Source: an uncultured Clostridia bacterium (GTDB lineage: Bacteria > Bacillota > Clostridia > TANB77 > CAG-508). From it: DNA of 64,000 nucleotides. Below are positions 3,425-34,403 of this stretch, piece by piece; the stretch's first letter is position 1; every line of letters begins with the position of its first letter. Made by a program: the position numbers and the translations under genes. The notes under the pieces are model-generated. The model saw nothing but the letters and a program-made list of their open reading frames with translations, had not been told where the DNA came from and ran no database searches. The DNA is taken from NCBI GenBank assembly GCA_947630065.1, contig CANRGE010000001.1, positions 88,281 through 152,280 on the forward strand, in the 5' to 3' direction.

Positions 3425-3435
3425 TAGTTACCACC

Positions 3436-5162: not shown

Positions 5163-5292
5163 ATCATCACCTCTGTGATTTAATCTTTGCATTAAAAAGG
5201 TGAAATATAAAAATCTCAATTTTTCTGTGGCATTTTAATGCTATGAAAAATTCTATGTTTTTAACAAAAATTTTTGTAAGAATTTTTATATA

Positions 5293-5330
5293 AAAAACAA
5301 AAAAGCACCTAAAAAGGTGCTTTTGTTTTT
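5293..5330 (-). terminator. Intrinsic terminator after the tail genes
   Basis: aaaagcacct-aaaa-aggtgctttt hairpin flanked by A/T tracts. Confidence 0.75.
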
Positions 5331-5703
5331 ATTTTATAAATGATTCTAATAATTCTAATTCTCCCATTGTTAAGCCCAAGGGTTCTAATTCTTGTAGTGA
5401 AAAATATATGTCGGGGAGCTAAATTTCTAATTCATTTAATTGCTAAATAGTTTCTTGTGCCTACTAAAGAAATTCTTCTTTTATTTTTAAGCTGCCATCA
5501 GGTAACTATATGAAATTATTATTTTCATCTACTTCACAATATTTTGTTAAAGATTGAAACTATTCTTGCCGAATTTCATATTCAGATTTTAATGTTTTTT
5601 TAATTTTTAGAAATTTATATTGAGTTTCAATTGAAAAAACTTTTGTAGAAATTTTATTTAATAAAATTAGTAAAGGTTCTAATTGTTGTTGTTTAATTAT
5701 CAT
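5329..5703 (-). CDS. Small helical phage protein downstream of the tail tip (DUF1617-like by position and composition)
   Basis: 124 aa with TAG=Q: MIIKQQQLEPLL...CEVDENNNFIQLPDGSLKIKEE...LTMGELELLESFIK. Confidence 0.7.
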
Positions 5704-5713
5704 TTAATCACCT

Positions 5714-8700: not shown

Positions 8701-11488
8701 ACATAATGTTATATTCTTGTACATATTTCTCTTTTATTTTATCGTTATATCTACAAATTTTATCTAATTCTTCTAAATTATTTAATATTGCAGAATCTTT
8801 TAACACTAATTGCTAAATAAAATAATTCTAAATTTCAAACGTGCCGCCTGGCATTATATCATCATCAAAAATTACTAAATTTCTCATACTTTTTTCTGTT
8901 ATAAAACTGCTATAATCATAATTTTCATTATTATACCAATAAAGATTTTCAGATGGTATATCTTTTGTAAAAAGATTCCTACCACTATATTTGAAAATAA
9001 TATTATTATTAGTAAACTAATCCGCACCTTTAGTATAAGCTTCAAAAAGTCTAACTTTATTGATTAGCATTAAATTAGGATTTTCTATAGCAAAAAATGG
9101 ATTTTCAATATCTTTTTTAGTTTTAAAAAGAAATGTTCTTGAACTAAGTGTATCATTATTGACTTTAAAGGGATAATTAGCATCTTCAATAAATTGTATG
9201 CTATCTCCATAATCCCAAATATTATCTACATTATTTGAATTAGCAAATTGTCTACCAGTAAATTCAATTCTTTCTCGTTCTGATATTGTATATTTTCCTT
9301 CACCTAATGAAATTCCTTTACCTATTATAATTTTTAAGTTATCAATTGATTTAGTAAAGCAGCTAATATTTAAACAATAAATTTTATCTTTTTCTATTTT
9401 TTTTTCTTGTCCTATTATACCAAAATTAACTATAGTGCCAGTTTCTAAATCCATATTTTTATCTATAGTTAATTCATTATTTTGAGTACCATTTCTATAT
9501 TTTACCACTAAAGAAAAATTAAGTTGAGGTACTCCACTATTATTAGTTTTCTTTGTTGGATATAAATATCTAATCTATTGCTTATTACCTGAAGTAAAAT
9601 ATTTTACAGGTTCAAAACATCTTTTTATTTTATTATAATTTTTTTTATTTATTTGACCCGTACTACTAATATCATTTTCATTATATAACTCATCTAAATA
9701 AAAAATTATCTAATAAGATTCCTCATTATTATTTTTTTTTGTCATAAAATAAGTTCCGTTGCTAAAAAAATAACCTTGTCGTTGAGCATCTGTAAGTATT
9801 GAAAAAACTGTTTTTAATTGAGAATCTAATTGATTATATTTCTAAGAATTAAGTTTCCAAACATAACCAATTGGATAACGAGGTGGAGTATAATAAAGGA
9901 AAGATAATTCAGTTTGTGAAGAAAAGTTATTACTATCTGACCGAGAACTTCTTAACTAAACTTTAGCAGAATCAAATTTCATTGATTCTGATTCACTTAC
10001 TAAATTCTATACTTCCCAACCATCTGTTGACTATATGTTTACGCCGTTTTGTATATAATTTCTTGCTAATTGTGGCACTATTTGTCGTGTATCTATCTTG
10101 GAGCAAACCTAATAATTTTCTGTCGTTCCCCACCAATCAGGGTTGGAAAAATTATCATTAAAATTAGAAGAGTTTTCAGAATAAACAGTAGTAAACTAAT
10201 CTATTTCTTCTGTTATATTTAATTCAGAACGATTAGCTATTGAAATACTTTTTCCTTTTATTTCAGCTAAATCATTAAGATTACTTAAATATCCATCATA
10301 ATATACACATTTATTTCCTAAACATTCTTTATAGGTATCAATTACATTAAAATCTTCTGCAATATATTTAAAAGTATGACTAACGTAAGCCAAACTATCT
10401 GTACCGCTTGCTAAACCTTTAGTCAGCTAAGTATCTTCAAAAATATACCAATAATCAGATTTAATATTTTCATTCCATTGCCGCGTTGTCATAAAATAAT
10501 GATAAGTCTTATCTAAAATCAATCCAGTTTCATCAATTTTTAATTTCTAATTTTTAGGGAAATAAATAAACTAAATATAATTATTTGGGTCAACGTTTCT
10601 CGGCGCAAGGGCATAGTAATTAGTATTAGGATAATACTAAGCTTCTTCTGTAGCCTATAAATCATATTTATCTTTAATTTCACTAATATTTTTATAATCA
10701 CAATCAGAATAACAAAAATCAAGCTAAGTATAAGGTACAAAAATATAATCATTAAGATTAGTACTTAAAGAAACTTCTTCATAATTATTTTTCCAAAATA
10801 TGCCTTTTTCCCTTGCTAAATCATCGCCCATTTCAGCTTTACGAATTTCTCCCGTTTCGGCATTAGTAATAGTTAAATTATCTAACTAAAAATTTATTTT
10901 ATAGGCACTTAATTTTTTGAACTAACTAATAGGAATCTTAAAAAGTTTTGTAGGAGTAAATTCTGTAAAATCACCCCAGTTATATTGAGGGGTATAAGTC
11001 CAAAGAGAACCATCTAAAACAGTTTCAGAAAAAGTGCCTATTTCTTCAACATTATTATATAATTCTTCATCAAAAGTTATGCCATATCCATTTCTTGACA
11101 ATTCGTCTATAAAAGAATCTGAACAAGTATATGTTTTCATATAACTTTTAAATTTCTTATCTTCTTTTATTGTCTTAATATAAAGTTCATACCATTTTTC
11201 TTTATAAAATAATTTTATTTTTCTTTCTGAAAATAATTCATCTATAAATTTATTTCTTACATATTTTCCTTCTCTACTATCAAAATATTTGTCAGGCATT
11301 TGAAAAGTTAAACTATTTGTACCATTAAGTTTTCGAGTGAATTTAACAGAAGTCGCCCGCCCCTCATAAGTCATATCATGTGCGCCAATAATAAAAAGCT
11401 TAGTTTCTTTCTTTTTACCATTATCTAACACTTCTTCTTTCCAAACGCTTATTTCATAAGGAAGTTTTTTTATATCTTCTAATGCCAT
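5714..11488 (-). CDS. Large tail tip / baseplate hub-spike protein (~1924 aa)
   Basis: Nine ORF-track fragments (10922, 10196, 9017, 8615, 8228, 7385, 7001, 6491, 5894) share one frame and each ends at TAG; true stop is TGA at 5714. N-terminal RKLNGTNSLTF and C-terminal GVTPQGINADCIKTGTLDAGKI are typical of tail proteins; follows Dit. Confidence 0.85.
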
Positions 11489-13886: not shown

Positions 13887-16800
13887 TTATTTATAAAGTA
13901 TTACATTTGAACCTACTTGATTAGCTGCGTCTACTATGTCCTATTTTACTCTTTCTACTGCCTAATCTACATCATAATCACTTGAAACATTTTCTACATT
14001 TATGTGTATTTCTATATGAGTATCTCCAACCGTAGAATTGGTTACATTAGATGGTCTTTGTAATGCTGGAATTGTAGCAAGTAGTTCTGCTGCTCTGCCA
14101 ATGCGAAGTGTATCATCGGAATTTAAGAAAGCTTCTGGTTTTGCAGGCGTTCCATCAACCCAAGCTGTACCTGTGTAATTTACTAAACCACCTGTTTTGA
14201 AAGCTTTAACAGTACTATCTTGTTGCTATATTCGTTCTGCTGCACGTAATCCTGAATTACCAGCACCTGTAATATGAATCATATTTTTTTCATCTACATA
14301 ACCATGCATATTTTTAGACACAAGTTCCTCAATTTCTTTATTGATGTCAGATAATGTATCAATTCCAATCAATGTTTGGGCAGCCTTTTTAGCTTCCTCT
14401 AATGCAGTAGCTAAATTATTAGCAGAAGTAGTAGCTTCAAGATTTGCAGCATTAACAGCTGCAATAGCATCTCTAACGTCCTACTACTTTTGTGCAAGAT
14501 TACTTTCAGCAGTAGAAACACCATCAATAGCAGTCTAAACACCAGCTAAAGCCTCAGCGACACTATTAGTAGCCTCAATAACCTTATCTTTTGCATCTTC
14601 AACAGCCTATAAAGCATCTTCTAAATCTTGTCTTGCTTCTTCCTATGCTTCATCTACCTAATCCATAATGTCATTTAATGATTCTTCGGCTGACGAAGTT
14701 AAAGTTTCACTTGTTTCTTCTACTACTCTGTTTATTTCGTCCTATTCATAATTTAGACAGTCAACAAAATCTTCCATAGAGGTTTCCATGTAAATTCCAC
14801 GTGCGGTATACATTTCTTCTAATTCTTCTGTATATTCTTCTAATTGTGCTTGTGTCATATCTTGAACTTCTAAATTATTATTATAGAACCATTCAATCAT
14901 ATCATCGGCAGTAGCCCAACTTGTTATAATAGCATTGGCTTCTTCTATATAATTAGAGTTTTCTAATAAATATTCCTAATATTGTATTTCTAAATCTCTA
15001 TTTTCTTTTTGCTAATCATAAAGCTCTTTTAGACTATTAACAATATTATCAACTGAATTATCAAGTAATTCATTTCTTGTTTTTTCTATTTCATCACGTT
15101 GTTTTTGAATATTTTTTTGTTGAGTACCTGATGTATCTCTTGAAATTAAGCTTAATTTCTTTTCTTGTTGTCCTAAATTCTACCATTTTTCTTCTTGTTC
15201 TCTTAATTGTCTTTGTTTATTTATAGCTTCTTCTAAAGCAGATAAGTAATCACTGTCAGCTTGTGCCATCTAATCATACTTATTTTTAGTATTTTCAACC
15301 TCTTGCTCTGATTGTTGTTTTAATATATCAATTACTGATTGTTCAAGAGAAATCTGCTAAGACCTTGCATTTTTTCTAAATTCGTTAAAATCTTTTTCAA
15401 CATTTTCTAATTCTTTTAAGTTAGATTCTACATTTTTCCTATAAGTGTTAATAGTATCAGCTTGTTCTTCAAACCAAGTTTTTAAATCATCAGGCAAATT
15501 TGCTTTATTTATTGCATCAAAATTTACTACAATTCTATTATTTATATCCTAAATAAAATCAGAAACATCAAGTGTAGTATTTATTGCACCTTTATTTCTT
15601 AAATCTTGAAGTCTTTGAGTTGCGCCGCCGCGGAACATTTCCAAACTATTTTGAGCTGCTTGATTATATCTGTTGTTTTCTGCTGCTAACCATACAACCT
15701 AATCATGAATAGCCTTTTTATAATCTTCAACGGAACTACCAATATCATCATTTATAGTTAAGTTATCTAAACTTTCTTTTGCTTTATCAGCTGTTTCTTT
15801 TAATTGTTCTAATCTTGTTATGTAATTATAAAGTCCGTCTAAGCTACTTTTCCTGCGATTGCCTGTTCCATAGTAAGCTTCATTTAATGCTTTTTCTTTA
15901 TCTATGACTTCTTGTTCTTTTTCAGTAAGTTCCTCATAAGCTTCATCTAATTTTTTATTTTCATCAGCAAGTTTTTCTTCTGCCTCTGTTACTTTTTTGT
16001 GAGCTTCTTCTAAATCTTTTTCAGCATCTGCAACTTCTTTTTGTGCCGATTCTAAATCTTTTTGGGCATCTTCTAATTCTTTAAGACTTTCTTCCTATTT
16101 TTGCTATGCTTCTACAACATCTTTTGACTAAGTATCAGAAATTTCTTTATATGAATCATTTAATTCATTTATTAAACTCTAATATCTTAATATTCCTTCG
16201 GTATTATTTGCGGCTTTTGCTTCTGCTAATTTATTATCTAAATAGTTGGATAAATCTTTATTTAAATTCTCATAATCAAAATGTAAATCTTCATTTACAT
16301 AATCGGACATTTGATGCTAAAAATCTGAAAATTCTTCAAAAAGAGATGTTAAAGAATCAATTGAGCTATAGCTTAATATATTATCTTCTTTATATTGTAC
16401 TCCAATTGTTTTGAATGAACTTATAGTAGATTGTAATAAAGCTGCCATTTCTCTTAATTGTTCATTCTAACTTTTTAGAGAATTAAGAGTATTACTATTT
16501 ATGCGGTCTATGTCACCAAGTGAATCTAATATTCCACTATATGTTTGTTCTTCTACTTCTAATGTATTTAATTCTTCTTCTTCTTCTTCTGTTCTATTTT
16601 CAATACTTCTTAACTCATCTAATCTTTGCTAAGTTGAAGCCTATGCTGCTTCAAACTACTCTTTTAATTGTGTTGTATTCTATACAAAAAGACTGTTTAA
16701 TTTTTGAGTATCAGCTAATATGTGTCCAGATTCATCTACACTAAAATAATCATCAATATTATATTTTGTACCAGTTTCTTCAAAAATATTATCAAATAAA

Positions 16801-19800
16801 TCCTATACTTTATCTTTTAATTCTGTTTGTTTTGATTCTGTAATATCGAGCAAACCTTCATCTGATGTTAGAATATCAGATAAATCAGGTATTGCATCAG
16901 AAAAGAGTTCAGCTGTCTTTTTTAATTTATCACCATATTGTTGTATATCTATTGCATTTAAATATGTATTAAAACCAGCAGTTTCAGCAGCGTCTTGCAT
17001 AGCGTCCATATAAGTGTTAATAGTATCGTCTGCTAATTGTATTCCCCATTCTTCTAATAATTGTTTTAATGTATCAGTATAAGTTGCTTTACTTACTTCT
17101 GTAAGCTATGTAAAATCTACAGTTTCTATCAATTGGTTAATTTGGTCTGCACTTAAACCTAAATCTTGTGTTTTAGATAATAATGCACTATTAAATTCAC
17201 GACCTTTTTGTGTACCATTATCTGTGTCAATAATTTCTGCTGCGGATATATTTTCTGCTGCTTTTGCCGCAAAAGAGCTTTTTTGTTTTGTAGTCCAATT
17301 ATAAAAGATACCACTATAACCACCAATTACTGAACCTACCTAATCATCTACTTTTTTTATTTGTTCTTTAGCTTCTTCTGCCATCTATTGTGCAGCTGCT
17401 TTTTCCTTATTAGTATCAAAATTTTCTGAAAAACTTTCTATATAATCATATAAATTGTCACCAGTTAATTCATCAATTTTTACATAAAAATCATCTATAG
17501 CTTTTTCTTCATCTGTACTTATTTCAATCTAATTAGCGGTTTGTTCATACAATAGTTCTTCCATGCCAGCTGCATACATTTCATAGATTTTACCTATATC
17601 TGCACCTTTATGGCGATTATCTTCAAGAAACTAATCTACATTATCTATTTCTTCTTTACTAAATGTTTCTAAAGCTTGCTTTAATGTATTCCTATAAGAT
17701 TCGTTAACACCAGTAATATCTAAATTATTACCTGTAAAAGTTTTTGTTTCAATGTCATATTTACCTTTAAAAATGGCTGCAAATTGTCGTTCTGACCAAA
17801 TACCAGAAGGTTTACCTTGTTGAGTACTTGCTTTTGCTATAAAATTAGCCACTGATTCACTCATATCAGTATTTTTTGTTAATAAATAAGATGACAAATT
17901 AGATTCTTTTTGTGCTTGTATATTTTTTCTATTTAATGCTACGTCTATTACTTCATAAATATTGCTACTATTTACACCAGTACCCTCATCTAAGATTTTC
18001 TAAAATGGTGACTCATCTAAAGCTTTTTCTTGTAAATCAATATTCTTCTCTTGTTCATTTAATACTAATAAATCACTTGCATTTGCACTGGTTACATCTT
18101 TTGTGGCTAAAACATTTGCTTTTTTAATTATATTATCCCATAAATCATTCTAAACTTTCAATTCGCCAGTTATTTCATTATAACTTGTTACAATTTCTGG
18201 AAAATCTGTTTTTATTTTTTCAACTAGTTCATTATACTATTCTTGTTCTTCGTTAGTTTTTATAACTTTATTAGATAATTTATCATATTGTTCTTTTAAT
18301 TCTTTAACATTCTAAGCATTATCTTTAGATTCATCTGCCTAATCCCTATACTAACTGGCTTTGGACTATAATTCCTATATTTTTTCTTCTGATTCTGCTA
18401 TCTAATCTTCTATACTCTTATTATTTTCTTTGTAATTATTATATAATGCACTAATTCCATAAGCTATACCTGCTATAGCTGTTGCTATTCCTACTATGAT
18501 TAACCCTACACCAGTTGAACTTAGTCCAGCGTTTATTCCCGAACCTAAAGATGCACCAGCAGCAGCACCAGTAGCTCCAGATTCTGCTACAATAACAGCA
18601 TTTGTTGCAGTATTTGAAGCTAAAATTTCAGCATTAGCTTCTTGTGTTGAAGTTACTCTTGTTCTTTCAGCTAATTTCCATGCTATAGCTTCTGCTGCGG
18701 CATTTAGTGCTGTCTATGCTAACTATGCACCTAATGTAATTGTTGCCGTTTTCATAGTGTCCTCGGCATCTGCTCCACCTATAAGCATAGCAGTAGCCAT
18801 ACCAGCAACAGATGTTACTTGTTCAAATGCACTTGTAGCAGCTTGTTTTACCTCTGTCCATTTTTTCTTACTTTCTTCATTTGCCTAATTATTTTCAGCT
18901 ATTTGTCCATTTAATCCGTCTATCTATTCTCTTATTTCTCCTATCTATCTTACTCTTTCCTCTTCACCGCCTGCTTCAACAGGAGTGATTTCAAGTACTT
19001 CACGTTGTTGATTTAAGTCTTTTATCTATTGTTCTAACTATGAATTATCTATTTCTGGTGTAATTCTAAATAATTCTCTTATTCTATCATCAGAATTAAA
19101 ATTTATTTTTTCAGTAATACTTTCTACTATAGAACTTCCTAATTTAGAGAAAGCGTCATGTGTACTTTTAACTCCTTTTATAAAATTAACAACAAATTGT
19201 GTACCTAACGTTGCAGCTACTGTTCCAAAGTTTATCAATTGAGCAAGATTCATGTTATTTAATGTATCAACTAATTTTGTAACCTAATCTATAATTTTTT
19301 TATATATTTCACTATTTAAAAAACCAACTCTTAATTGTTCCCATGAATTTTTTAATTTATTTAACTTATTTTCAATTGTATCTTGATATTTAGCAAATTG
19401 TTCACTACTTTTTCCAGCTGATGTCTAAGCTAAGTCAACTAATTCCATAGTTCTATCGTAGTTTTCCATCATTGCTATAAATCTACTCTATTGCCTACTT
19501 CCTGCTGCTGTTGTTGCAATCGGTTAATCTATTATCTTTCAATAATAGCCAGACTATATCATCACTTAATATTCTATCACCAAATATTAAATGCCCACCG
19601 CTTTGAGATTATTAAATCTCTACTCTACTTACTTCTTCATACAGATTTTTCTTCTATACTATGCTTTCGATAGTCGTTGAACGTTTTTCCTTAAAAAGGA
19701 AACTTCGCTGCGGATTGTCCAATATAATACGATTTTACCTTACCTTAGTCATTACCCTTGCCGCAATAATATTGCTATTATTGTTTGGTTGTATTATCTA

Positions 19801-22800
19801 TAAGGAGTTTCCCGCAATTCAATGGGTATTAAAGAGATACAATTATTTCTATCCATTTATAAATTCATCATACTATTCTTTTGTAAGTTCTTTCCAATAA
19901 TAACCGTGGCTTATATGTCCTGTTTTCATAGCTTTTGATATATTTGAAGAATTTTTTAAGTTTAATGCTCTTCCAGCTTCAGATGTACTATAATAAACGT
20001 TAATTAAATTCATATTTTTATCATATTGTCCAGTTAAACAAGTTCTTTTTGTTTTTGTTTCGTAATAACTTTTTAATACATTTTCTTGTTGAGTAACATT
20101 TTCTAAATTACTTAGTCTATTATTAGCTCTATTTCCATCTATATGATTTATAATATTTATTTTCTCTTCAGGATAAAAAGTTTCATAAACTGCTCTATGA
20201 GCCTAAATTTCATTTCTTTTACCTGATGTCATATTGTAAGTCCATCTTATATATCCACTATTTTTATTCTAACTACCAAAAGTAACATATCCAGTACTTT
20301 TATTTCTTATTCTTCCCATATTAGACACTTCATAATCACTATCTCTAAAAGGCTTCCATATTTCCATTTTTTCTTCTTCCTCGGTTAATTTTTCAGTCTT
20401 TTTATGCTCTGGTGGATTAACTATTTTTGCAATATTTTCTCCCTAAGAAGCCCATTCTAAATTACTTAAATCATTATTATACGGGCGACCATCTTTATGA
20501 TGTACTACATTTTTATATTCTGGGTTATCATTTGGTATAAATAATTCTGCCAAAAGTCTATGTTTAGCAATAGAGATTGTTCCATCTTCTAACTATAAAG
20601 TATATCTAATATAACCATTACTTTTTGCCCCAGTAGAGATTAAATGTGTTTTTTCGTTATATAAATCTCCATTACTAAATAAAAAATACTAAGTTCGTTT
20701 TCCATCAATTATAATTGGTTTAACTTCAACCATTTTATATCACTCCTTATGTTATAATTTTAGGTATTTCTACCTTTACTATATTAAATTATAACATATC
20801 TTGTGTAAAAAGTCAAATGATTGACTTTTGATACAATGGTATGGTCTTGATAAAAAAAATGGTATGGGATTCATATCTCTATGAGTTCCTATCAAGTGTG
20901 TCCCATTTCTCACTTAGCTCCAGAAAAACGTCATCTAAATCTCTAAATTGTCCTGAAGCGTCTTTGATAGAAATACCAACTGATTTCAATGCTATATCAA
21001 CTTTGTTGTAATCTAAATCATCAAATTCGGATTCTGATGTTCCTGCTACGTTTTCTTTTAACTCTGTAAAACGAGCTATGATAGTTTTCATAGCCGTACC
21101 AATATTTTCCTTGTTGTTCTCTAAGGGTCGTTACTCCTTAAACGTTCTCTTATGAACTGCTTTATATTTCTATAAAGAACAGACTATATCTTCTTCTTAG
21201 TTCTAAGAAGTGCATCACTTCGGTTTCACTTGAAACCTAACGGTGCTAATCTCCGATAGTCGTTGAGCCTTTTTCTTTTAATAAAAAGAAACTTGGTTGC
21301 GGATTGCCCAATCTTTTATTTTTTTACTATACCGAGGTAGTTAATCTCGCCGCCGTCCAATCACTTGAAACGGTTTAGTAATAAAAGCTCTAAGGGTGTT
21401 CCCGTCAGTTCAATGCAATTAGTGTAATGATTACTCATTACACTCCCCTATAAGAAATTTTATATTTCTTATTCATAACGGTTTTTTGTCCTCTTCTAAG
21501 GGCTTGTTTTAAAAGCCTTAAATTTATATCTGGATAGAGAGCGGTTAAAAGATTACACTCATCATAATTAAAATATAGTCTTTTAACTCCATCATCAAGC
21601 ATATATTCTGTATCTCGTTCTTGCTCAAATTTATTATCTTTTTCAGTATCAATTTTTAAATCATCAATTCTTTCTTCTTCTTTGCTTGCTTCGCCATCTC
21701 TTAACGTTAATTTTTGGTAATTGGACTCTAATTCGTCCCAATCTATGGTTAGTTCCTTATTATCTTCTATATAATAACCATTAAATTTAAAATCACCGCC
21801 CTTATTATTAGCTGTATCATAACATTTTTTAAGTTCAGCCTTAACTTCATCTATTCTAAAATATTTTGTTTTGTAATTAGTTTTATTTTTATAATTTATA
21901 ATCCAATTTATAGCGTCAGAAGAAGGCGGGCAATCTTTATACCAAAAAATACAATTCTTATGAGATACTCTCTGTCCACTCATTACGTTAAAAACACAAC
22001 CTCTTGAAAAACCATGGTCTTTACAAAACTATGTTATATTATTAAAAACAATTTGAGAATTGTCTTTATAATTGTAACATATTATATCCTTTAAATTTAC
22101 ACCAAGAGTATTATTTTTATTGTAATAGTTTGACTGTTCACTACTACTTGTTGCTAAGCTTTTATTATAAAATTTTTCATTAGGAATTTTATAATAAATT
22201 AAATAATACTTTTCCAAAAAAGTCAACTCTTCACTACTTTGCGCCGCCGCCAAGAAGTGAATTGAAAAACTCCTTGTGTCATATTCTTCAAAAGCTTTTT
22301 GCAAATCCACGCCGCTGCCTTTGTAATTCTTGTTAGTGGTTAATGTCTATGATGTTATTTTTCCTATATACATCATACCATTGACTTCATTTTTAACGTA
22401 ATAAATATAACCATAATCCATTTCAGATTCCTCCCAAAAAATATTATTAGGTTTCAACCTAATATAATTATAACATTTTTTGGATAAAAAATCAAATATT
22501 TTAAGAAGCTCTTTGGGAGAATCTATGAAACATTTGAAGAGAAAAACACGCTTTGTGATTACGAGGCGCTTCTTGTGTCGTTTCTATCATCTAAGTTAGA
22601 AACGCAGAGGTTGTTTCAAAATCCATACCCGCTGAATTGGCAATTGTATAAAATTCCATTAGATTCGCTACATCTAATGTGTTCTCTTATGAACTGCTTT
22701 ATTTTTCAATAAAGATTAGACTATATTTTTTTCAATATCACTTCGATTCGCTTGAATCTACTCTCATTACGAGATAGTCTTTGAACTTTAATTGGAGGAT

Positions 22801-25656
22801 TTTCTCTACATCTTTAATTTTCCAATATGGAATTTCTATTAAAGGAATGTTGTTGACTAAACAATAATCCTTTTTTATTTTATCTCTTTTCTATTGCTAT
22901 TTTAATGAATCAAAAAATTCTATATCATGTAATGTTGCTATCCCTAAACTTCTATTAAAATTTCTTTATTATCAATTATAACACTAAAATCATAGCTAAA
23001 TTTAGGTAAATCTTCAAATCTTTTCTATTTTGTAAAATAAAAATTATTTTTTTTAAACATCTACAACAACTTATTCTCCTTTAGAAAAATATTTATAACA
23101 TTTAGGGCAACCTTTTGTTTTTGAAAAATCTGCTAATCGTACAGAGTAACAAAAACCACATTTATGTTTAACTAAACTTCTTTTATCATTACCTTTATAC
23201 TAAAGCAACACATATTCTCCATTTCCTTTTTCGTTTAACCATTTCTAAGCATCTTCAAAAGAAAATTTATTATGAATTTTAAAGCAGTTAGGACATATTT
23301 TTCCATTAAATTTTAAGGTAACATTTTTTTCAAAAATATATCCACATCTATTACACTAAAATTTTGTTTTAGAATTTACGCCATGCCACTCTAATAATTT
23401 TATATATCCACTATCTAATTCTTTAATCATGTGATTATATATTGTATTATATTCTTTTTCACAATTTTTACAAAAATAATCTTTTCTTCCACACATTAGT
23501 GCTTCTAAATTTTGAATCTTTTCAATTTCTCCACACTTATTACATTTTATTCGCGCAGATGCGCGTAATCCTTTATAATCAATAATAGCTAAATCAGATT
23601 TAGGATATAATCTTTTTAACTTAAAAATTTCTAATCTTTGCTAATTCCATCTTGAAAAAGGGTTATAACAATTTTTACATAAAGTAATTCTACTTAATAA
23701 ATTTCTTGCACATTTATATGAATAAATTTTTCCACAATTTAAACATTTATATTTAATTTTTCCTTTTTCTTCTTCAAAATCAATAATTTCAATCTAATTT
23801 TCTTTAAAAACTTGTTTTAATTTTTCTTGAAAATCCATTTAATTCCTCCAATTCTTAGCTGCTGATTACCCATTATTTAGTACTTAGGATAGTCATTCCA
23901 TATACCATATTACTATTTTTTTCTGCTTTCGCCGCATTAACCTTTTGGAGAAAAGTTTTTAGCATAGTAATCTTTAGGGAGTCCCAGCAATTTCAATATT
24001 TTAAGCACCAATTGATGCCGTTTTACTCATAGCATAAGCTATTCCGTTAACATCTGCCGCGGCGTGAGCAGCTAACTCTGAATAAACATCAGTTACTTGC
24101 TCACCCTAACTCATTTCCATATGGAAACCACGTAAAGCTGCTGTCATTTGTGAAGTTGCAGTAGAGAAGTCTGTTCCTGCTAATGTTGCTAACTTCATCG
24201 TAGAACGAGTTAGTTCAAGTGATTCGGCAGTATCAAGCCCCTACTAATAAAATAATGCCGAAGATTGTATAACATTTTCGGTTGTTTGTCCTAACTCATT
24301 AGCCATTGCGGCGTATTCACCGTAACTACTCCACATATCTTGTACGCTATAAGTTGTAACCATTGCTATTGAAGCAAATGCTTTATCTAATCTTTGTACG
24401 TCCTAAAACGTCTCTTGTATTATATGTCTAATAGTATTCCATATTGTACCAATTGAGAATAATGATTTAACAGTATTTTGCATTTGCTCAAATGTGTCAT
24501 TTAAGTTACTTTGTGCCTATTCTTCTTGATATATTTCTCCTATAGTTTCATTAGTAGTTGAATTTAGTTGACTTTGTTGTCTATTTATTTCTGATAATGC
24601 ATTAGTTTGATTTTGAACAGATGCAGCTACCGCATTATTTATATTATTTAATTCTGTTGTTCTTTGCTATTCAAGTGTTCTTGTTTGTTCTAGTACATTA
24701 TTATAAGTAATAACTGCTTGTGTAGCTGCACTTGCCTAAAAATTACCCGATGTATCATAACCACCTAATGAAGTAGCACGTCTAATATTTTTTGAAACAG
24801 TTCCTTCATTAACACTATTAGGGTCAACCTCATTCGCTGCTTGAACCGCAGCTTTAGACATTTTTTGTAAGTCTTGTGTATAGTCTCTAACAAACTAAGC
24901 TGACTACAAATATGCCTAATCTTCTTCTGAGAGCTCTTTACCTAATCCATCAAATACTTCCTATGTGCTTTTTCCTTCCATTATTATATCAGCTAATGCT
25001 TTTTTATATTGTTCCATAAAAGCAGTATTAGATGAAAGGTCTGAACTTATAGCAGTATCTGAATAACCTAAAATCGCGGAGGTAGCTGCACTTTGCCCTT
25101 GGGCGTTTGCATTTTTCATCTAATTTGATACAGTCTTAAATCCACTTGACTATTGTGAATAAATGTTAGATAATACGGCAGCTAAATCCTTACCATCTTC
25201 TATTGCATTTCTTAATTCTTTTCTATTACTTTTTAATGTAATTACTTGTTTATTATTTTCACTGGTAACTTCTAATGCTGCATTTTTTAATTCCTAATTT
25301 CTTTCAATTATCGCCTGCATCTAACCGTCAATTTTCTACAGTTCCTAAGAAGTTTGAGAATAATTCTCAGCAATATTAAGCTAATTTAATCCAGTATTTA
25401 TTTTTGCAAAAGATGATTGAAGTTTATTAAACTAATTAGAAAAATTCTAAATATCTTTAGAATTAGAGAAACCACGAGATATTTGAGCTAATAAATCAAC
25501 AACTTCTTTTTCTGCTTTCTATAAATCTTTATCGACTTCAGAAAACATTGAATTTTTAACACCTTTTGATTCCATCTAAGTACGAATCTGTTTTAAAGAC
25601 TATAAAATTTGACTTGCATCAAATTCGCCTTTAAATCGTATTGTTTTATCTGCCAT
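13887..25656 (-). CDS. Tape measure protein (~2531 aa), four exons: 25656-24015, 22646-22564, 21109-20873, 19520-13887
   Basis: Exon lengths 1642+83+237+5634 = 7596 nt, in frame. The spliced core reads SKTASIANSAGMDFETTSAFLTQMIETTQEAPENIGTAMKTIIARF...RNSQRYIATTAAGSRQQSRFIAMM. C-terminal AFKTGGLVNYTGTAWVDGTPAKPE; long coiled-coil-like body. Confidence 0.9.
19843..20733 (-). CDS. Intron-encoded homing endonuclease with two tandem HNH modules and C-terminal NUMOD1-like HTH
   Basis: HRLLAELF...VHHKDGRPYNNDLSNLEW and EIWKPF..YEVSNMGRIR...HRAVYETF...INHIDGNRANNRLSNLE; several in-frame TAG; AAGGAG RBS. Confidence 0.88.
20788..20816 (-). promoter_or_regulatory. sigmaA-type promoter for the intron 3 endonuclease
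   Basis: TTGACT-17 nt-TATAAT with TG extension on the minus strand. Confidence 0.75.
21438..22421 (-). CDS. Intron-encoded GIY-YIG homing endonuclease
   Basis: MDYGYIYYVKNEVNGMMYIGK...YKGSG...LEKYYL...FYN; joins ORF fragments 22029-22310 and 21438-21983 through TAG; GGGAGG RBS. Confidence 0.88.
22468..22496 (-). promoter_or_regulatory. sigmaA-type promoter for the intron 2 endonuclease
   Basis: TTGATT-17 nt-TATAAT with TG extension on the minus strand (coordinates +/-2). Confidence 0.65.
22647..24014 (-). mobile_element. Group I intron 1 in tape measure gene; ORF in P6 region
   Basis: P1 GGCAU/GUGCU with a U.G pair fixes the 5' splice site. Core motifs P gaaattgctgggac, Q gtaatcagcagc, R ttcaaagactat, S aaaatatagtct. 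3' end is 22647 (A) or 22641 (G). Confidence 0.88.
22738..23838 (-). pseudogene. Degenerate intron endonuclease: repeated CxxC Zn-ribbons plus DUF559/Vsr-like nuclease domain, two frameshifts
   Basis: Open for 255 codons to TAA at 23071, right after SKGE. A shifted frame gives FSYDF...LIEVQGQQHY; a second shift near 22930 gives RDKIKKDYC..NNIPLIEIPYW...KFKDYL, overlapping P7. Confidence 0.75.
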
Positions 25657-25670: not shown

Positions 25671-27713
25671 TTAAAATTTTCTATTAGGAGAAATCTTAAA
25701 TGCAAAACTTAAATTATCTTTAAAATGTATATCAATACCTGTAAAGTTTATATATAAATTGTTTATTAAAAATGAAACTATATTTTTCGTATTTTCTTTT
25801 GATAACATCTATTCTCTTATTGGTATCCAAGAAGATAGTAAATTAACTCCAGTAGTAACTTTTTTTTCTTGTTTTTCAGATGTAAAGAAAAAAAGGTCTT
25901 GCTAATTTTTTTGTAATTCATACCTTAATGCAAGCTCCATTGCTATAAAAATTGTTGACGCAGGAATAAAATTAAAATTTATTATATAAAAATTACTCTA
26001 AGCTTTTTCGTCCATCTGCTTTTGTTCTGTAGCTTCATCAAAACGCAAATAATTAGGTATAGACTATATTAAAATATTATTAGTTTTAGATATTTTTTCT
26101 TCTTCATCTACTGTTTCAATTGTTTCTTTATTATCTTTTATTTTTTTTCTAAAAATAAAGAATTTATTTTCATCATCATTCTGTTTTAAAAAATAATTCT
26201 ATAATATACTATACATAGATTTTTCTATATATCTTAGCATATGTCGCTCATCACTTAATTTATTACTTTGACTATATATAAAAAGAGTATCTTGTATGGA
26301 AGTATAATTTTTTACCTAAAAGCCCATGCTTTGAAATTTTCCCATAGTTGTTTTTGTATCTATTTTTACATCTACAGCTGCTTGTCCAGTACCATAATTA
26401 GTCTAACCTAAAACTTTTACAGTATCATTATCTCTTTTTATAGTCTGGAGAAACAAACTAAAAAAAATCTCTCCTATTTCACCAGCAATCTAAGATGAAT
26501 AATCATTTTTTTTCAATTCATCTAAAATATTTGGATTTTCTTTCATCAATTCTGCTAATTTAGTAGATATATTTTTTTCAGTAACCCAATCCTAAAACTA
26601 TTTTGCTACATTATTATTATTTTCAGTAGCTTCCTATAAAGTAGTTTTTTGTAAAATAGTTTTTTCTAAAGTCTCTTCTATAACCTCTAAAAAAGCATTA
26701 CTATATGCTTTAAAATCTTTTTCTCCCGTTGTATTTTTTTCATCAAGTTCCGCAAACTTCAATGCAAATGCATTGTTTTTTTTACCTAATTCAATTACTC
26801 CTATATGTTCTTGAAATAATTCTTCTGTCATTTTTTTTCCAATTTCATATAATAATTCATATGTTTGTTTAGAATCAAGAAAAAAATTAAAATCACGGTT
26901 TTTATACATCTCTGTAAAAGTTTTTGCTTGTTCCCAAGTCATATATAAGAATGTTGTTTCTCCATCTTTAGTTGTTCTTTTATTTAATCTTATTGACATA
27001 TCTCCTATTTTATATGATTTTGTTTCATATCCTCTTAAATTTTTCTCTAATACACTAAGCTCTATATCATTATTATCAGTTTTTTTCCCACTTATACCAA
27101 AATTAAAAGGATATGCTTTAAAAATTTTTTGAATAGAATCCTGAATTTTTTCTCGTATTACATCATCTACATTACCCTTTTTATTCTTTTTATCAACAAT
27201 TATGTCAAGTAGCAACTCCTCTATATCTACTAATATCTTTTCTATTTCCTAAGTTTTTATAAAATTTTTACCTTTAATAGTACTTCGTATATTTGTAAAT
27301 TTAGTATATTTATTATTATCATCATTTTGCTCACTAATACTATTATTTGACTCTTGATTACTTGTTTTTTTAAATTTATCTTCCTCTATTGCTCGTCTTA
27401 TAATATCTACGCCACCAGTTAAATTTTGTACGAATTGTCTGTCATAAAAATATTTAATAAAATCATAATTTGAATAGTTTTCTCCATAAACTACTTTTTT
27501 TATATTTTCCTAAAATGCCTAAAAATTTGCAGGTGTTTGAAGATAATCATATAATGTCCATGCATCGTTCCAATTTCCAATATTTCCTATAAATTTATTG
27601 TAAAGAATTTGTTCCTTTTGAAAACTTTGATATGCCTATTTTCTTAATTGAGTAATTGCATAATTTTTATTGTTAATTATGTCATTAGATGCATAATTCT
27701 AATTACTCACCAC
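25671..27713 (-). CDS. ~680-aa hypothetical protein with candidate PD-(D/E)XK-type nuclease motif
   Basis: GTG start after GGAGGTG; frame of fragment 26634-27215 extended through TAG; contains AGEIGE...AAVDVKI...GFQVKNY. Confidence 0.7.
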
Positions 27714-27760: not shown

Positions 27761-28657
27761 TTAAATATAATCTCCTGTTAATTCCTTATCTAAGAAAAAA
27801 ATTTTTGCTACAGTATTAGTTTTATCTCCTTCTTCGGGATAGCCAATAAAATAAAAATCACTAACCGTAGAACTCTCATAATTTTTCCCTAATCTCATTG
27901 ATAAATTAGAAGATAATTTAATTTTCGGCAACTCCAATATCACAGTAGAAACTTCTCCACTAACTTCGTCCTTATAACTCGCTTTTGCGTCTAAACGCAA
28001 AAAACCATTGAAAAGTCGATTCCCGACTTCAATAACCTTAATTTTATCTTCGTAATTAAAGGTATAATCTATCATTATTTTTCTATATGATTCCTTAAAA
28101 AAGATTTTATTTCCATATATTTCAAAATCTTTTATAGGTAAACCATTGTCATAATTGTAACAAAAAATCCATTTAGTTTTACTTGGCGACAAAGGCTTTA
28201 ATAATAATTCTTCTCGCCGTCCCATTGGTAAAGCTTCAAAATCAGGATTAGGCTATGCACCAATTATTGCACTACACGCATTTGGGCAATATTTTAAATC
28301 TATATAACAATATTGTTCGTTTTCTATAGTATGTAATGTTTCAATATAATTAACAGATTTACTATTTAACTTATCATTCTTTGAATTACTTAATAAAGCC
28401 CAACTTGTTGGTGATAATACACCATGAGTTATCATAAAATCCATCTACTTATCTATATCCCAAATAACTAATGGATTATTATTATATCCGCCACGAGCCT
28501 AATGCTCATTTTTTCTTTCATTTATCTAAGCTATTTCCGCAGTACGAAAACTTAAAATAGACTCGTTGATGTCATATTTTCTTCCATTAAATTCAACTGG
28601 TCTATTTAATCTTAATGATACATCATACAATTCTTTAATTCCTCCAAAATGTTCCAA
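27761..28657 (-). CDS. Divergent tail-tube family paralog 5
   Basis: TTG start after AGGAGG; FGGIKELYDVSL...ARGGYNNNPLVIWD echoes the family motif; three fragments join via TAG. Confidence 0.7.
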
Positions 28658-28746
28658 AAATACACCTCCTAAAATACATATTCTAATTAAGAAGTATAAG
28701 ATTACTTTAATATCTCTAAAAAAATAAGATGGCATTATGTGCCATC

Positions 28747-30165
28747 TTAAAAAATTTCTTTATTATCAAAATCTATTTTTGCCGTTTCTTGCTTTATAAC
28801 AGGCGTATTAGTATAATGAGAACGTTGAGGAATTATTCTTGTACCACCATAGACATTGTCTTCTATAACTTCATAGTGTTTTAATTCCATTAAAACATCA
28901 TTAGGCGGCGAAAGAACATCTATACTCATTGAAAAAACTGTAGGTTCACCTTCTGCCTCTAATGTAATATTAGTATCACTCGAAACCTAAGCCCTATGAA
29001 TTGTAAACTAAAATCTTTCATCTTGCTATGTTTTCTAATTTCTTATATATGTTTCACCTGTTATTTTATAAATATCGGGAAAAGTGTCAGAATTTATAAC
29101 TAAAGTTTTTCCTAATATTCCATCTTTTTCTCCCTCTCTATGTTTTACTGTTCTACTCCATTTTATAAATGGTGTGCCAATTCTTAACTTAAAAGACCTT
29201 TTATCATTGGTATGAAAATATTTGTTTTCATCTTGTGTAAAATCTTCATTATCTATATCCCAATCTTGAATATTGCCCTCACTATCTATATTTAATAAAG
29301 GCAACATTGTTTTGGGGTCATAATAAATAACATAAGAACCGCTTTCATCATTAGAATAATACCTTAATAAATTTTTCTTCTATTCATAAGTATTGATAAG
29401 GAGTCCTTCTTTTTTACGAACAATATCACGCTCTGTTCTATCAATAACCTCAATATCATATTGCTTTGTTTCAATCTAACCAATTTTATTTATATTAGTC
29501 AACTAATTTATTATTTCCTTAACAACAGTTGAGGGGATAGCTAAATTGGGAACATCTTCCGCCTTCCATTGAGTAGCTAAATCATTTCCTTTTGACTGCT
29601 CTGCTAAAATCTCGTTAAAATTTCTCTAATAATAAGCCTTTCTCAATAATGTTCTATTTTCTTCAATATATTCATTATTCTTCACGTAATTAGGATATGT
29701 GAAAGTTGCTTTTTCAGTTTTTCTAACAAGAGAAGCCTAAATAGAATCACAAGCGGCATAAATAACTTCCCATTCATCTTCCGTTAAAGCGGGAGAAGGA
29801 TAGGCTTTTATTGAATAATGTAAACTGCCATATTTATTTGCCATATTGATTTTAACAATAGCAGATGAATATTTTGTAAATTTTGCATTTAATCTACCAC
29901 CCCAAACTAAACTCATTGAAGCAGGACTAAATAAGGCATCTTCTAAATTTAATGTAATTTCTTTGCCAAAATTCCAAGAAACTAATTTTTTATTTCCATA
30001 GCCGCCAGTTGCATTAACTTTTTCAGCTTTCTTTTCAATTGTAGAAACTTTTAAAGTATCAAGGTGGAGAACTGGAGTATAATATTCTTCATCGCCAACA
30101 GTATTTATGCTAAAAAATGTTACATTGGCTACTTCTTTTATGCCATATTTCTAAAAAAGATTCAC
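28747..30165 (-). CDS. Tail-tube family paralog 4
   Basis: MNLFQKYGIKEVANVTF...LHLDTLKVSTIE...TGGYGNKKLVSWNFGKEITLNLEDALFSPAS...ITLEAEGEPTVFSM. Confidence 0.78.
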
Positions 30166-30180
30166 TTAGTTCTCACCTCT

Positions 30181-32310
30181 TTATATAGAAACTGTAAATG
30201 TTAAAGAATCCACATCTTTATCATTTTTTGTTAAAAAAGTAATATTGCCATCAGTGTTTACATTAACATCAGAAGTCCAATAAACCTCTCCATTAACTAA
30301 TATTGCCGCCGCGCCCTCTTCTTGTGTAGCAATAAGTAAAATATTTCTATATTTTTCCTTAGCCTCTTTATTAGTAATAGTAATAACATTATCATCAGAA
30401 ACTTCTAAACCTAAATCCTTAATCATCTTATTAACACTTTCATTATCTTTTGGTAGCATTAAATAAGCTTCAGAATTATTAAAAGGTTCTAAAACATCAA
30501 CAGGACAACAATAATAATTATTCTTTTCTGGTAAAACAATTTTATAATTTCTTTCACCTAATATAACACTTATTTCAGGCTCGCCACATCTCATACAATC
30601 ATCATCATCATAATTAGCAGAATGAGGAATTATTGAAGTACTTCCACTACAACAATCATTTTTATAATCATATTGGGTAAGTTTCATCATCACTCCATCA
30701 TCTCTCCGCATAACTGACATATTCATAGTAAATGTAGTAGGTTCGCCATCTGCCTAAAACATGAGATTAGTTTCTGCTGACATTTTGCATAAGGGAATTT
30801 CAAACTAAAATTTAGAATCTTTTCCGTCTTTTCTACTACGACTATAAGTAGTACCTATAAGCCTGTAAGTGCCTGGAAAATGATTAGCGTCTACAATTAT
30901 TTGATGACCCAATGTTGTGTATTGCGGTGCAATAGAACGTTGCCATTTATGATATATTTCATTCTATTTAATAATTCTAAGATTGCCATTGATTATTGCG
31001 CCAGTTTGACTATGAAATTCATTTGAATTTGGTTCATATGGTCTTTCCGTTTTAGGGTCAATAAAAACAGTTAAACTTGACTACTAATATTCAGGTAAAT
31101 CTTTAAGAAATGACATTTTAGTATTAGCATCTGTGTTAATACAAAAAGTTTTATTTGCTATATGTTTTTCCATTGTATCTAAATAAGGAACATTTTCTAT
31201 TCCATCTTCAATTGGGTGAATAAATTCCTAAGTTGAAATACCATTAGCATTAAAGGTGTCATTTATATAGAACGTTCCTATTTTAAATTGTTTTGTGAAA
31301 ACAGCTTCACCACCAATCATATAAGATACTTCTTTATAAAAATCAAGAGATGAATTATAACAATTTTTAGAGTGTTCTTTTATTAAAATCTTTTTATTGA
31401 TTCCCTCACTATTAACTCTTATACGAATGTCTGAATGTTCCTAATAATATATTTCTTGTTCGCCTTGTAAAGAAATCATCTAAACATCACAATCTATCCA
31501 GTCATAATCAAAAAATGTATCTTTTGAATTTATAAAACTATTAGGACTAAGCCATGATTCACAATTTTGAGTATCAATTGTTTTTAATAAAAATCTTTCT
31601 AATTTATCTGATGAATCAGTGTCAGATTCTGCGGATTTTTCTTTTTCTGAAAAATTAAAAGTACTAAAATTATTCATTATTAAGACTGCTTTTTCAGCGG
31701 GCTAACCTTTAGAAAATAATTCACAATTATATTGATAAGTATTATCTGTACTTTTTTCTTTATATAAATACTTTACATTTTCTTTTAATTCTTTTTTTCC
31801 ATATCCCAAAAAATCATCAGTATATTTATATGTTCCTGTTAAAGCAGTTATAAGACCTTTTTTCTTCTCACCTGTGCATGGACATATATACTCTATTATA
31901 GTCTAATTTTCTGATACAGAGGGATTAGTTCCCGTAACATCATTATAAGCAAAATAAATAGTTCGTCCTTTTTCATCTTTCTTATATTGATAAGGATTCC
32001 AAAAACCTTTTATTACAGTTTTATCTAAACCAAATTTTCCGCCCCACATTAAACTCTGACTTGCAGGTGTAAATAAAGCGTCCTCTAATTTAACACTAAT
32101 TTCCTTACCATAATCCCAAGTAATTAAGTTCGGATTACCTATTCCACCTTTAGCAGACGACTAAGAAGCCGTCTGCTCTATAGTGGATATTTTAAGTGTG
32201 TCAAAATACATTAGAGGAACATAAATTTCATTATCATATCTATCAAGTGTTATGCCGAAAAGAACGCAATCAGCGACTTCTTTTATGCCATATTGTTCAA
32301 AAATACTCAC
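30181..32310 (-). CDS. Tail-tube family paralog 3
   Basis: MSIFEQYGIKEVADCV...FDTLKISTIEQTA...KGGIGNPNLITWDYGKEI...EDALFTPAS...FPGTYRLIG...ADGEPTTFTM. Confidence 0.78.
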
Positions 32311-32325
32311 TTGACCGCCTCCTTA

Positions 32326-34320
32326 TTACTCGACTATCACTTCTGATGAGCCATCAACGGCATAGAAACAGCCGTTTTCTCCTTCTACCATTTTGGTACG
32401 TGATTCATATACGTTAATTTCCATCATATTACCAGCGGGCGGACTTGCTACTTCTAAGTCAAGATTAAATACTGTCGGGTCTCCATCTGCGGCTAATGTT
32501 AATGTATGGTCTGACTTAACTTTGCAGAAAGGAATTTTAATCTGCATATCCTAATCCTCACCAGTATCACGGCTTCTTATATGAGTTTCGCCAATCATCA
32601 TATACATTCCAGGGAACTAATCAGCTCTTACAACAATCTTATGACCTTTTATCTTTTTGCTTTCAGGAGCTAAAGTCAAAGATTGAATATAATATGGCTC
32701 ACCTTGGTGAAACCAATAATCATCATCATAAGGCTACATTGTACGAGGATTTATGTAAGACCATAGTTTACCACGAACTTTTTCACTTTCCAATCCAGAA
32801 TTTGGTACAACATCAGTCTATTTTTTATCAACAGCCCAATCTGGTTCTGTTCTTATTGTGGCAGCTTTTATATCAACTATATTATCTTTATATTTAGTAA
32901 TCATAAAATAAATCATTTCATTTATACTCTAAAATCTTATCCACATATCTATACCCTTAAATTGTGAAACGTCTACATCAGGACAGGGGTCAAACCAAAC
33001 GACTTTTTTAGCAGCTGGTTCACTACTTACAGCGTTTTCCTCTGATGTATAGCCTAAACTTGCATCATCTATACTAACAGCAACGCCAACTAATGGAATG
33101 TAATTATTATTATTATCAACTATTATAGCTAAATAATCAGCATCTTTTATTTTATATGTGGCATCTGCTTTATTAACTATTTCTGTACCGCTATCATTTT
33201 TAAGAACATCAACCTTATGATTCCATAAATAATTTCTTAAAGTAGTACCAACATCTTCTTCCAATTCTATTAAAGAAATGTTTTTAAGTTTCTTTTCTAA
33301 TTCACTATCAGATTTTATTTTATAGAGAATTTCAGTAGTTTCATATTTATAAGAAATTTTATCACTTGAATCTGTACGAGTTGCCTAAATCTAAGTATCA
33401 AGATTTCTTAATGGAACATAATAGGTATCATCTTTCAAAATAACGCCATTTTCATAAACTGTATAGTCCAAATCTTTTAATAATTTTGCTAATGTTATAA
33501 TAGGTGCTTGTGCTACTTCTACAGTTTTTTCTAATTTCTATTCTACTAAAGTTCCCTAATCTTCCATAGCCGCGTCATAAATGATTTTTGCTAAAGGCGG
33601 CACTTGAAATTTACCTCTATTATTGATTCTGTAAATAACGGCATCTCTATAATTCTCATAATCAGGCAACGAATGAACGCTAACTTTTCTATCCCAATCA
33701 ATAGTATAAGCATTTCCTTTCACGTCAAAAAATCTATCAGGAACAACAGCTATTGATTTTACAGCAGATTCTACTGCCATTTTCCATTTATATGTTTTAT
33801 TTCTAACAGAGCCAAAACCTCTTATATCAGTTCCGTCAACAACAGATGAAATTTTTAATAAATCAAACTAATCATCTACTACATCTGCTTTTATTTTAGG
33901 TAGCAATTTACTAACAGGTGTTCTATTAGAACGAGGATAGAAAGCTTTTTCGGTTCTTTGCAAAACTGTAAAAGGATTACAACATTCACAGACTCCTGTC
34001 TAATAATCTATTTTTCCGTCTTTCCAATCGGCACTTAATATGCCGTTCCAACACATACCTAAAGACGCGGGTGAGCATAAGGCATCTTCTATACTTATGT
34101 TAATCGTTTTACCATAATCCCAACTAACTAATCTTAAATTACCTTTTCCACCTTGCGCCCAAGTATTCTCTGCCGTTTTCTCGGTTGTTGAAATTTTTAG
34201 AGTATCTAAATGAAGTGCTGGCACATAATAAAGTTCACCACTGCCATCAGACTTTTTATGAATACTATAAAATGTAGCGTCAACTACATCATGTATTCCA
34301 TACTAATCAAATAAAGTCAT
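32326..34320 (-). CDS. Tail-tube family paralog 2
   Basis: MTLFDQYGIHDVVDATF...LHLDTLKISTTE...QGGKGNLRLVSWDYGKTI...EDALCSPAS...LAADGDPTVFNL. Confidence 0.78.
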
Positions 34321-34351
34321 TCTTTAACTCACCTCGACTAAAACTTTATAG

Positions 34352-34390
34352 AAAAAATGGCTATTGAACTAATTGATTCAATAGCCAATT
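34352..34390 (-). terminator. Intrinsic terminator after the major tail protein
   Basis: Minus strand reads tggctattgaa-tcaattag-ttcaatagcca-tttttt. Confidence 0.8.
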
Positions 34391-34403
34391 ATTCAATTAT
34401 TTA

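Follow-up and report, generated by a model that had tools for sequence, protein, structure and literature searches.

Results

A predicted tape-measure gene in four exons

We analyzed a stretch of 64,000 nucleotides (nt), hereafter called the window (positions 88,281 to 152,280 of contig CANRGE010000001.1, GenBank assembly GCA_947630065.1, from an uncultured Clostridia bacterium), in which a gene for a phage tape-measure protein appears to be split into four exons by three group I introns, each with a nuclease gene of its own. All features of the window described here lie on the minus strand. This strand opens into long open reading frames (ORFs) when TAG is read as glutamine; under translation table 11 the region is fragmented, and reading either TGA as tryptophan or TAA as glutamine leaves the frames of the same region closed. 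In alignments with eight homologues, the residue opposite the TAG codons of the window is glutamine at 118 of 545 aligned positions (background glutamine, 6.8%), and a tRNA gene with the anticodon CTA, one of ten tRNA genes, is present on the 153,374-bp phage contig. Because the ORFs open, TAG aligns with glutamine in the homologues and the contig has an anticodon-CTA tRNA, we assigned TAG to glutamine; the window is evidently part of an uncultured phage contig of about 153 kb that uses this code. The ten tRNA genes form a cluster at contig positions 43580-52436, outside the window, and the CTA tRNA, labelled Pyl by ARAGORN, would read TAG. Compared with isolated phages, the region gave no match by megablast, and in a protein search with exon 3 the sole match was Psychrobacillus phage Perkons (41% identity).

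With TAG as glutamine, segments 25656-24015, 22646-22564, 21109-20873 and 19520-13887 join into 7596 nt, that is, 2531 codons and a stop; this frame is free of internal stops and includes 77 TAG codons. Since translation without splicing would end after 551 codons and these TAG codons lie in the spliced ORF, a full-length product would depend on both splicing and recoding, as the initial annotation had proposed. The junctions were placed by tblastn (genetic code 15) with four uninterrupted homologues (P0002, P0003, P0004 and P0007), which gave four collinear pieces on the window. Exon 1 (24015..25656) starts with the ATG at 25656, ends in U24015 and is supported by the PF10145 domain and by tblastn with the uninterrupted homologues. 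Exon 2 (22564..22646) comprises 83 nt and is 80-83% identical to homologue residues 548-577 or 557-586, and exon 3 (20873..21109), of 237 nt, is 82-89% identical to the homologues, with exact ends at 21109 and 20873. Exon 4 (13887..19520), of 1877 codons and a stop, begins at residue 654 of P0002, which alone among the four homologues matches at this junction and places the start exactly at 19520. The homologues are continuous over all three junctions (...KTASIANNAGMSF...TTQEAPENIGTAMK...NSQRYIATIAAG), and the peptides expected across them after splicing are ...KTASIANSAGM..., ...QEAPENIGTAMK... and ...SQRYIATTAAG.... The coordinates and the two internal exon lengths first reported for this gene were borne out by these alignments, as was the suggestion that splicing would restore a continuous conserved segment of the tape-measure protein: the intron-less homologues read without interruption over every junction.

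The product was recognized as a tape-measure protein by its domain match, its great length (2531 amino acids) and the place of its gene before that of the distal tail protein Dit, which lies directly downstream of exon 4. Uninterrupted homologues of 2400-2680 residues were numerous in a protein search. The PF10145 (PhageMin_Tail) match is divided between exon 1, whose C-terminal end covers profile positions 3-107 of 201 (47.1 bits, cutoff 33.2), and exon 3, which alone covers positions 133-191 (E-value 2.1e-7). Ten tape-measure PHROGs match exon 1, and the tape-measure family phrog_4211 matches exon 4 (E-value 9e-17). Identity to P0004 is 29% over residues 1-440, 75% over 441-547, 89% in exon 2 and again in exon 3, 62% over residues 655-760 and 32% over the remainder. 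The predicted introns fall within 320 nt of the gene, in the stretch where the protein is most conserved, the PhageMin_Tail domain.

Introns 2 and 3 match the group I model

The three intervening sequences are intron 1 (22647..24014, 1368 nt), intron 2 (21110..22563, 1454 nt) and intron 3 (19521..20872, 1352 nt). The core pattern CAANGACYA ... ATAKAGTC, which marks strands R and S, was found once in each of the three introns and nowhere else in the 153-kb contig. Strands P and Q of intron 1 (P4, UGCUGG/UCAGCA) could also be read by eye, and the P/Q/R/S cores claimed at first for all three introns are in agreement with these observations. Inteins were rejected as an explanation for the insertions, which do not keep the reading frame, include stops and harbor ribozyme cores.

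A check against the group I covariance model RF00028 of Rfam (gathering score, 50 bits) was passed by introns 2 and 3 and not by intron 1. Intron 2 matches the model end to end with 79.6 bits at 21465-21160 and intron 3 with 68.3 bits at 19884-19530; these two are the only RF00028 matches in the whole 2.15-Mb assembly. The exon preceding intron 2 ends in U22564 and the intron in G21110; for intron 3, the corresponding bases are U20873 and G19521. In both, the Rfam alignment contains P8, the nuclease ORF lies between P1 and P2/P3 with its last codons entering the structured RNA, and insertions after the 5' strand of P7 fit P7.1/P7.2 hairpins. Such hairpins are typical of subgroup IA.

Both sites are also occupied in relatives, which we examined in 80 related viral loci (designated L010, L016 and so on). 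Eight other loci have an insertion at the intron 2 site, with the terminal G in 9 of 9 sequences and the preceding exon U in 8 of 9; position +1 of this intron pairs with the base before the GGG guide, as C-G, A-U or G-C across loci. The intron 3 site is occupied in L030, L031 and L035/L036, and U and terminal G are kept in 4 of 4 sequences. By inspection and from this limited covariation, we infer P1 helices for introns 2 and 3.

Intron 1 and a lineage without P8

The 5' half of the intron 1 ribozyme (23839..24014), folded by eye, comprises the 3' strand of P1, P3, P4, an extended P5 and the 5' strand of P6, which carries a GGAGG ribosome-binding site; the ORF is inserted in P6. The 3' half (22647..22790) holds the 5' strand of P7 (GUUCAAAGACUA), P7.1, P7.2, the 3' strand of P3, J8/7, the 3' strand of P7, P9, P9.1 and P9.2. 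Three features of this group I-like intron go beyond the initial annotation: it lacks P8, its last base is A22647 at the junction that the homologues require, and its nuclease gene is spread over three frames.

Orthologous introns occupy the intron 1 site in five loci (L029, L031, L032, L035 and L036), and the 5' half is 84% identical to that of L032 and 74% identical to those of L029 and L035. Compensatory changes were found in P1 (GCAUC/GGUGC versus GCGUC/GGCGU, with the U-G pair kept), P3 (AAUAUUG/UGAUAUU versus AAUGUUC/GAACAUU) and P10 (CAAUUG/CAAUUG versus CGAUUG/CAAUCG). U24015, the last base of exon 1, is wobble-paired to a G in P1. The CAATTG "repeat" at the two ends of intron 1 is explained as P10 pairing of a palindrome, and not as a target-site duplication. 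RNAalifold, applied to seven related 3' halves, returned P7, P7.1, P7.2 and P9, with compensatory changes in P7.1, P7.2 and P9; P7 is invariant among the seven aligned sequences.

In 14 P8-less copies, found in 10 of 81 sequences scanned, the 3' strand of P3 directly abuts GAAAAARAUAUAGUC. These copies occupy three sites of the gene (516, 546 and 558 in P0004 numbering) and include, besides intron 1, L032:1679-1973 and L022:5666-5885 (both compact and ORF-less) and L029:1303-1721. The L032 intron at site 516 has no ORF and shows the canonical U-G pair, a terminal G and a P10 of 7 bp. Compact ORF-less members with such canonical features argue that the P8-less design is functional. As for the last base, the orthologous introns of L029, L031 and L035 end in G, and A-terminated P8-less introns also occur in L032 (about position 3206) and L106 (site 516, minus strand, about position 355), where, as in intron 1, conserved protein sequence fixes the 3' junction. 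Looser P8-less variants were seen in L106 and in L115/L141/L154. Our literature search on group I introns without P8 found nothing relevant, and the feature may still be published.

Several candidate structures were rejected for this lineage. A short P8 in intron 1 (AUAUU/AAUAU) would consume J8/7, and neither L032 nor the copies at site 546 preserve it; a 5' splice site after G24009 would lie on the guide-sequence strand of P1. The Rfam alignment of two P8-less relatives forces a mismatched "P3" and "P8", and we preferred the P3 that shows compensatory changes.

Nuclease genes carried by the introns

All three nuclease genes contain in-frame TAG codons and are preceded by GGAGG-type ribosome-binding sites. 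The gene in intron 3 (19843..20733) is intact and encodes 296 amino acids, with seven TAG codons, two HNH motifs, NUMOD4 and NUMOD1. It matches PF13392 (HNH_3) over two stretches with 67.6 bits (cutoff 24.8), NUMOD4 with 30.8 bits (cutoff 23.4) and phrog_59 with an E-value of 1.3e-55.

The gene in intron 2 (21438..22421), also intact, encodes 327 amino acids with two TAG codons and a GIY-YIG-like N-terminus, in which a GYIYY...YIGK motif can be seen by eye. This protein matches phrog_314 (E-value 6.9e-11) and scores 21.6 bits with PF19835 (SegE_GIY-YIG), under the cutoff of 25. Its five orthologues are 61-67% identical; that of L016 scores 27.9 bits with TIGR01453, described as a group I intron endonuclease, under the cutoff of 56. 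The middle region of the protein has a weak PDB match to the C-terminal region of I-HmuI (E-value 0.074-0.25), and a structure model had a mean predicted local distance difference test (pLDDT) score of 51.7, too low for a fold test.

The gene in intron 1 (22741..23838) is a predicted pseudogene, its frame being broken by two frameshifts into the pieces 23838-23074, 23234-22905 and 22965-22741, which tile phrog_559 contiguously (positions 131-310, 310-365 and 362-416; E-values 3.4e-22, 4e-07 and 7.3e-12). The pieces, each with five to seven TAG codons, carry zinc ribbons and a VSR/PD-(D/E)XK-like domain. Intact nucleases of this type occur in L029 and L031 (360 and 363 amino acids), and ORFs of the same type without the nuclease domain in L032 (263 amino acids) and L035 (256 amino acids). 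The intact L029 orthologue matches DUF723 with 25.7 bits, above the cutoff, and DUF2726 with 21 bits, below the cutoff of 24.7. A structure model of this orthologue (mean pLDDT 62.8) was too poor for a fold test, a Foldseek search against the PDB gave no match at an E-value of 0.001 or less, and a PDB sequence search with this nuclease type gave no match.

These similarities support, with unequal strength, three different nuclease families, one per intron and one of them represented by a pseudogene. The three families named in the initial annotation fared differently: the HNH assignment is well supported and the GIY-YIG assignment more weakly so, and the zinc-ribbon gene, here classed as VSR-like, is frameshifted, which had gone unnoticed. 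PHROGs 59, 314 and 559 have been described as intron nucleases of Bastillevirinae phages, of the HNH plus NUMOD4, GIY-YIG/I-TevI-like and VSR-fold types (PMC11878797).

Promoter-like sites precede two of the genes. The site before the intron 2 nuclease (22467..22495; TTGATT-17-TATAAT, with TG before the -10 element) has 10 of 12 matches, and that before the intron 3 nuclease (20788..20816; TTGACT-17-TATAAT, likewise with TG) has 11 of 12 and is the best of the region. They are the two best promoter-like sites on the strand, in a region whose total site count is not above the shuffled expectation. At the place equivalent to the intron 3 site, TTGACT followed by TATAAT was also found in L030, L031 and L035.

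The same segment is interrupted in related loci

Among the 80 related loci, 58 are uninterrupted and 22 are interrupted in the same segment of roughly 200 codons, so that insertions are present or absent at many sites. A fast Rfam scan detected 29 RF00028 matches in 11 of the 22 interrupted loci and none in 12 uninterrupted control loci; these intron counts are lower bounds, as the scan missed L010:6257-6518 and L010:7344-7573, which score 66.1 and 54.2 bits with laxer filters. Our own spliced alignment identified, in 21 loci, 90 insertions of 150 nt or more, 55 of them with the R..S pattern, and the latter lie at about 13 positions within residues 482-673; boundaries of micro-exons are approximate with this home-made aligner. 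The initial annotation proposed that the segment is a homing hotspot, and this proposal holds in the sequences compared.

L035 has nine insertions, seven with R..S cores, five of which reach at least the Rfam gathering score. In L035/L036 (about 2246-9204), L032 and L052, up to nine insertions fall in a stretch of 280 codons, with predicted exons of about 9-20 nt. An intron ORF of L030 (about 2100-2900) contains LAGLIDADG-looking motifs (LGFLYADGYV, GLFDGDGSI) seen by eye, and would represent a fourth nuclease family in the same hotspot.

Neighboring genes

Just before the tape-measure gene lies an ORF of 680 amino acids (25674-27713) and, after the Dit gene, one of 1924 amino acids (5717-11488); neither has a PHROG match at an E-value of 1e-5 or less. 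Further upstream, five consecutive paralogous genes (27764-37280), encoding 324-958 amino acids, all match phrog_2729, annotated as a virion structural protein.

Discussion

The arrangement described here is very probably that of a tape-measure gene split by three mobile introns, each with its own nuclease gene. They would be group I introns of the IA type known from phages, with two extra hairpins, P7.1 and P7.2, between P7 and the 3' strand of P3. Under this interpretation the gene would be transcribed as one pre-mRNA, from which each ribozyme would excise itself; it would cut at the 5' end after the U of the P1 wobble pair, and P10 together with the terminal nucleotide of the intron would guide the 3' cut. 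Full-length protein would come only from the triply spliced mRNA, read with the UAG-reading tRNA of the phage. The nuclease genes would be expressed from their own Shine-Dalgarno sequences and, in two cases, also from a sigma-70-like promoter; the nucleases would cut intron-less alleles during co-infection, and the intron would be copied in. Decay of the intron 1 nuclease gene through two frameshifts would be the expected late stage of such a homing cycle, in which the ribozyme persists.

Splicing, nuclease activity and homing are inferred here from sequence, and several observations weigh against this interpretation. Introns 2 and 3 have short proposed P1 helices, with about 4 and 7 pairs, respectively, the GIY-YIG and VSR-like assignments fall under the Pfam and NCBIfam cutoffs, and the structure models were too poor to recognize folds. 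Intron 1 gave no match to RF00028 even at an E-value of up to 10, which is explained by the nuclease gene of about 1.1 kb that sits in P6. In addition, it has no P8: RNAalifold finds no helix in the 22 columns of the alignment that separate P7.2 from the 3' strand of P7, and to our knowledge the P8 helix is universally conserved in group I introns. Finally, the junction that keeps Ile-Ala gives intron 1 the last base A22647 instead of G, with the G-binding G-C pair of P7 unchanged. For exon ligation, group I introns normally require a terminal G that binds at this pair.

The 3' end of intron 1 might instead be G22641, six bases further on, which would give an in-frame product of 2529 residues without Ile-Ala (...KTASNSAGM...). 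The two junctions read ...TCAATTGCCAAT... (Ile-Ala kept, intron ending in A) versus ...TCCAATTC... (G22641 used). The P7 G-C pair that would bind such a G is intact, the join 24015/22640 is in frame without stops, and the orthologous intron of L032 likewise has an A before CAATTG. We nevertheless consider the use of G22641 unlikely, as Ile-Ala is kept in both homologues that span the junction (SIANN in P0004, SIASS in P0002), and the codons stay Ile-Ala in the window and L032 while differing at one synonymous third position. Moreover, P10 covariation puts the 3' splice site directly before C(A/G)AUUG, three terminal-G orthologues have their G directly before that hexamer, and the P8-less L106 intron at site 516 also ends in A with no in-frame G nearby. 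It is more improbable still that intron 1 is decaying and splices rarely or not at all, leaving little or no full-length tape-measure protein and perhaps a defective genome copy. The missing Rfam match, the lack of P8, the final A and the nuclease pseudogene would all fit such decay, but the P8-less design recurs at three sites of an essential gene, it includes compact ORF-less copies with a canonical U-G pair and a terminal G, and helices are kept by compensatory changes. This recurrence, together with the compensatory changes, indicates selection for function rather than recent decay.

We give very little credence to a gene that is never spliced, with the exon 1 product and an ORF of 1861 amino acids acting as separate polypeptides and the nuclease genes as free-standing insertions. 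Exon 1 does meet a stop just past its junction, exon 4 has an in-frame ATG that opens the 1861-residue ORF (called as protein P0001), and PMC10448857 cites a ribonucleotide reductase that is split and yet functions in pieces. Against this, exons 2 and 3 have neither a start codon nor a ribosome-binding site and yet keep 80-89% identity to homologues and the exact phase, every exon is flanked by ribozyme cores, and the PhageMin_Tail domain would fall into three pieces. A tape-measure gene interrupted by three group I introns, with intron 1 probably ending at the Ile-Ala-keeping junction, is the reading that we prefer.

Multiple introns in one phage gene have precedents. The orf142 gene of Staphylococcus phage Twort contains three group I introns, and the introns of phage T4 td, nrdB and sunY carry nuclease ORFs, located in peripheral loops and equipped with expression signals of their own; the host genes of these introns differ from the tape-measure gene considered here. 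The initial annotation had implied that a tape-measure gene is a novel target, which does not stand, as tape-measure introns are already documented (PMC10448857, PMC2504315). The tape-measure transcript of Vibrio phage ICP1 has four exons and three introns, verified by RNA sequencing and reverse transcription PCR, and the authors of that study state that tape-measure genes are frequently interrupted (PMC10448857; Barth, Dunham & Seed 2023). Our locus shares with ICP1 the four-exon, three-intron gene and introns that can carry genes of HNH-type homing nucleases; in ICP1, nuclease content varies among isolates while splice junctions are kept. ICP1 has one or two HNH genes, whereas in the window each of the three introns has a nuclease gene and three families are represented. 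Splicing is verified in ICP1 and predicted here; also in contrast to ICP1, the phage and its nuclease genes use TAG as a sense codon.

In prophages of the Bacillus cereus group, the introns TMP-IVS1, TMP-IVS2 and TMP-IVS3, of subclasses IA1 and IA2, occupy three tape-measure sites (PMC2504315; Tourasse & Kolsto 2008). As in the sequences described here, P1 and P10 have allowed related introns to adapt to different sites, and the nuclease gene has been lost from some of them. That report describes at most two introns per gene, in a different phage group, and introns with P8, unlike intron 1. Bastillevirinae phages have IA-type introns, up to three per gene (PMC11878797; Weglewska et al. 2025), in which the nuclease loop often divides the ribozyme and leaves one half undetected by the models, with frameshifted nucleases and the same PHROGs as found here. 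The host genes named there are those for DNA polymerase, terminase, thymidylate synthase and ribonucleotide reductase, and not the tape-measure gene.

The arrangement is therefore already known in kind; the density of the swarm in relatives and a P8-less lineage that sometimes ends in A may be new. We tentatively suggest, as a possibility somewhat short of an even chance, a clade of large phages that recode TAG and harbor an intron swarm in the tape-measure gene (at least seven introns in one gene, about 13 sites in roughly 190 codons), in which a P8-less lineage that includes intron 1, some copies of it without a terminal G, works. If true, a low dosage need, with few copies of the protein per virion, would let the gene tolerate many imperfect introns. 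Splicing by P8-less introns that end in A, if it occurs, would relax two textbook rules of group I catalysis.

These features also bear on annotation, since gene calling under table 11, or without splicing, breaks the gene into seemingly unrelated fragments. A PF10145 match is missing from many homologues of about 1850-2085 amino acids in the protein database (for example, P0005, P0009, P0012, P0013, P0015 and P0019); they look like exon-4-only calls of interrupted genes, and mis-annotation is probably common.

Taken as predicted, the locus adds to the few multi-intron structural genes of phages a fully loaded case, in which three introns carry nuclease genes of three families, and these nuclease genes share the TAG-as-glutamine code of the host phage. 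The comparative data extend beyond the window, pointing to a many-site hotspot in the tape-measure domain and to one P8-less ribozyme lineage.

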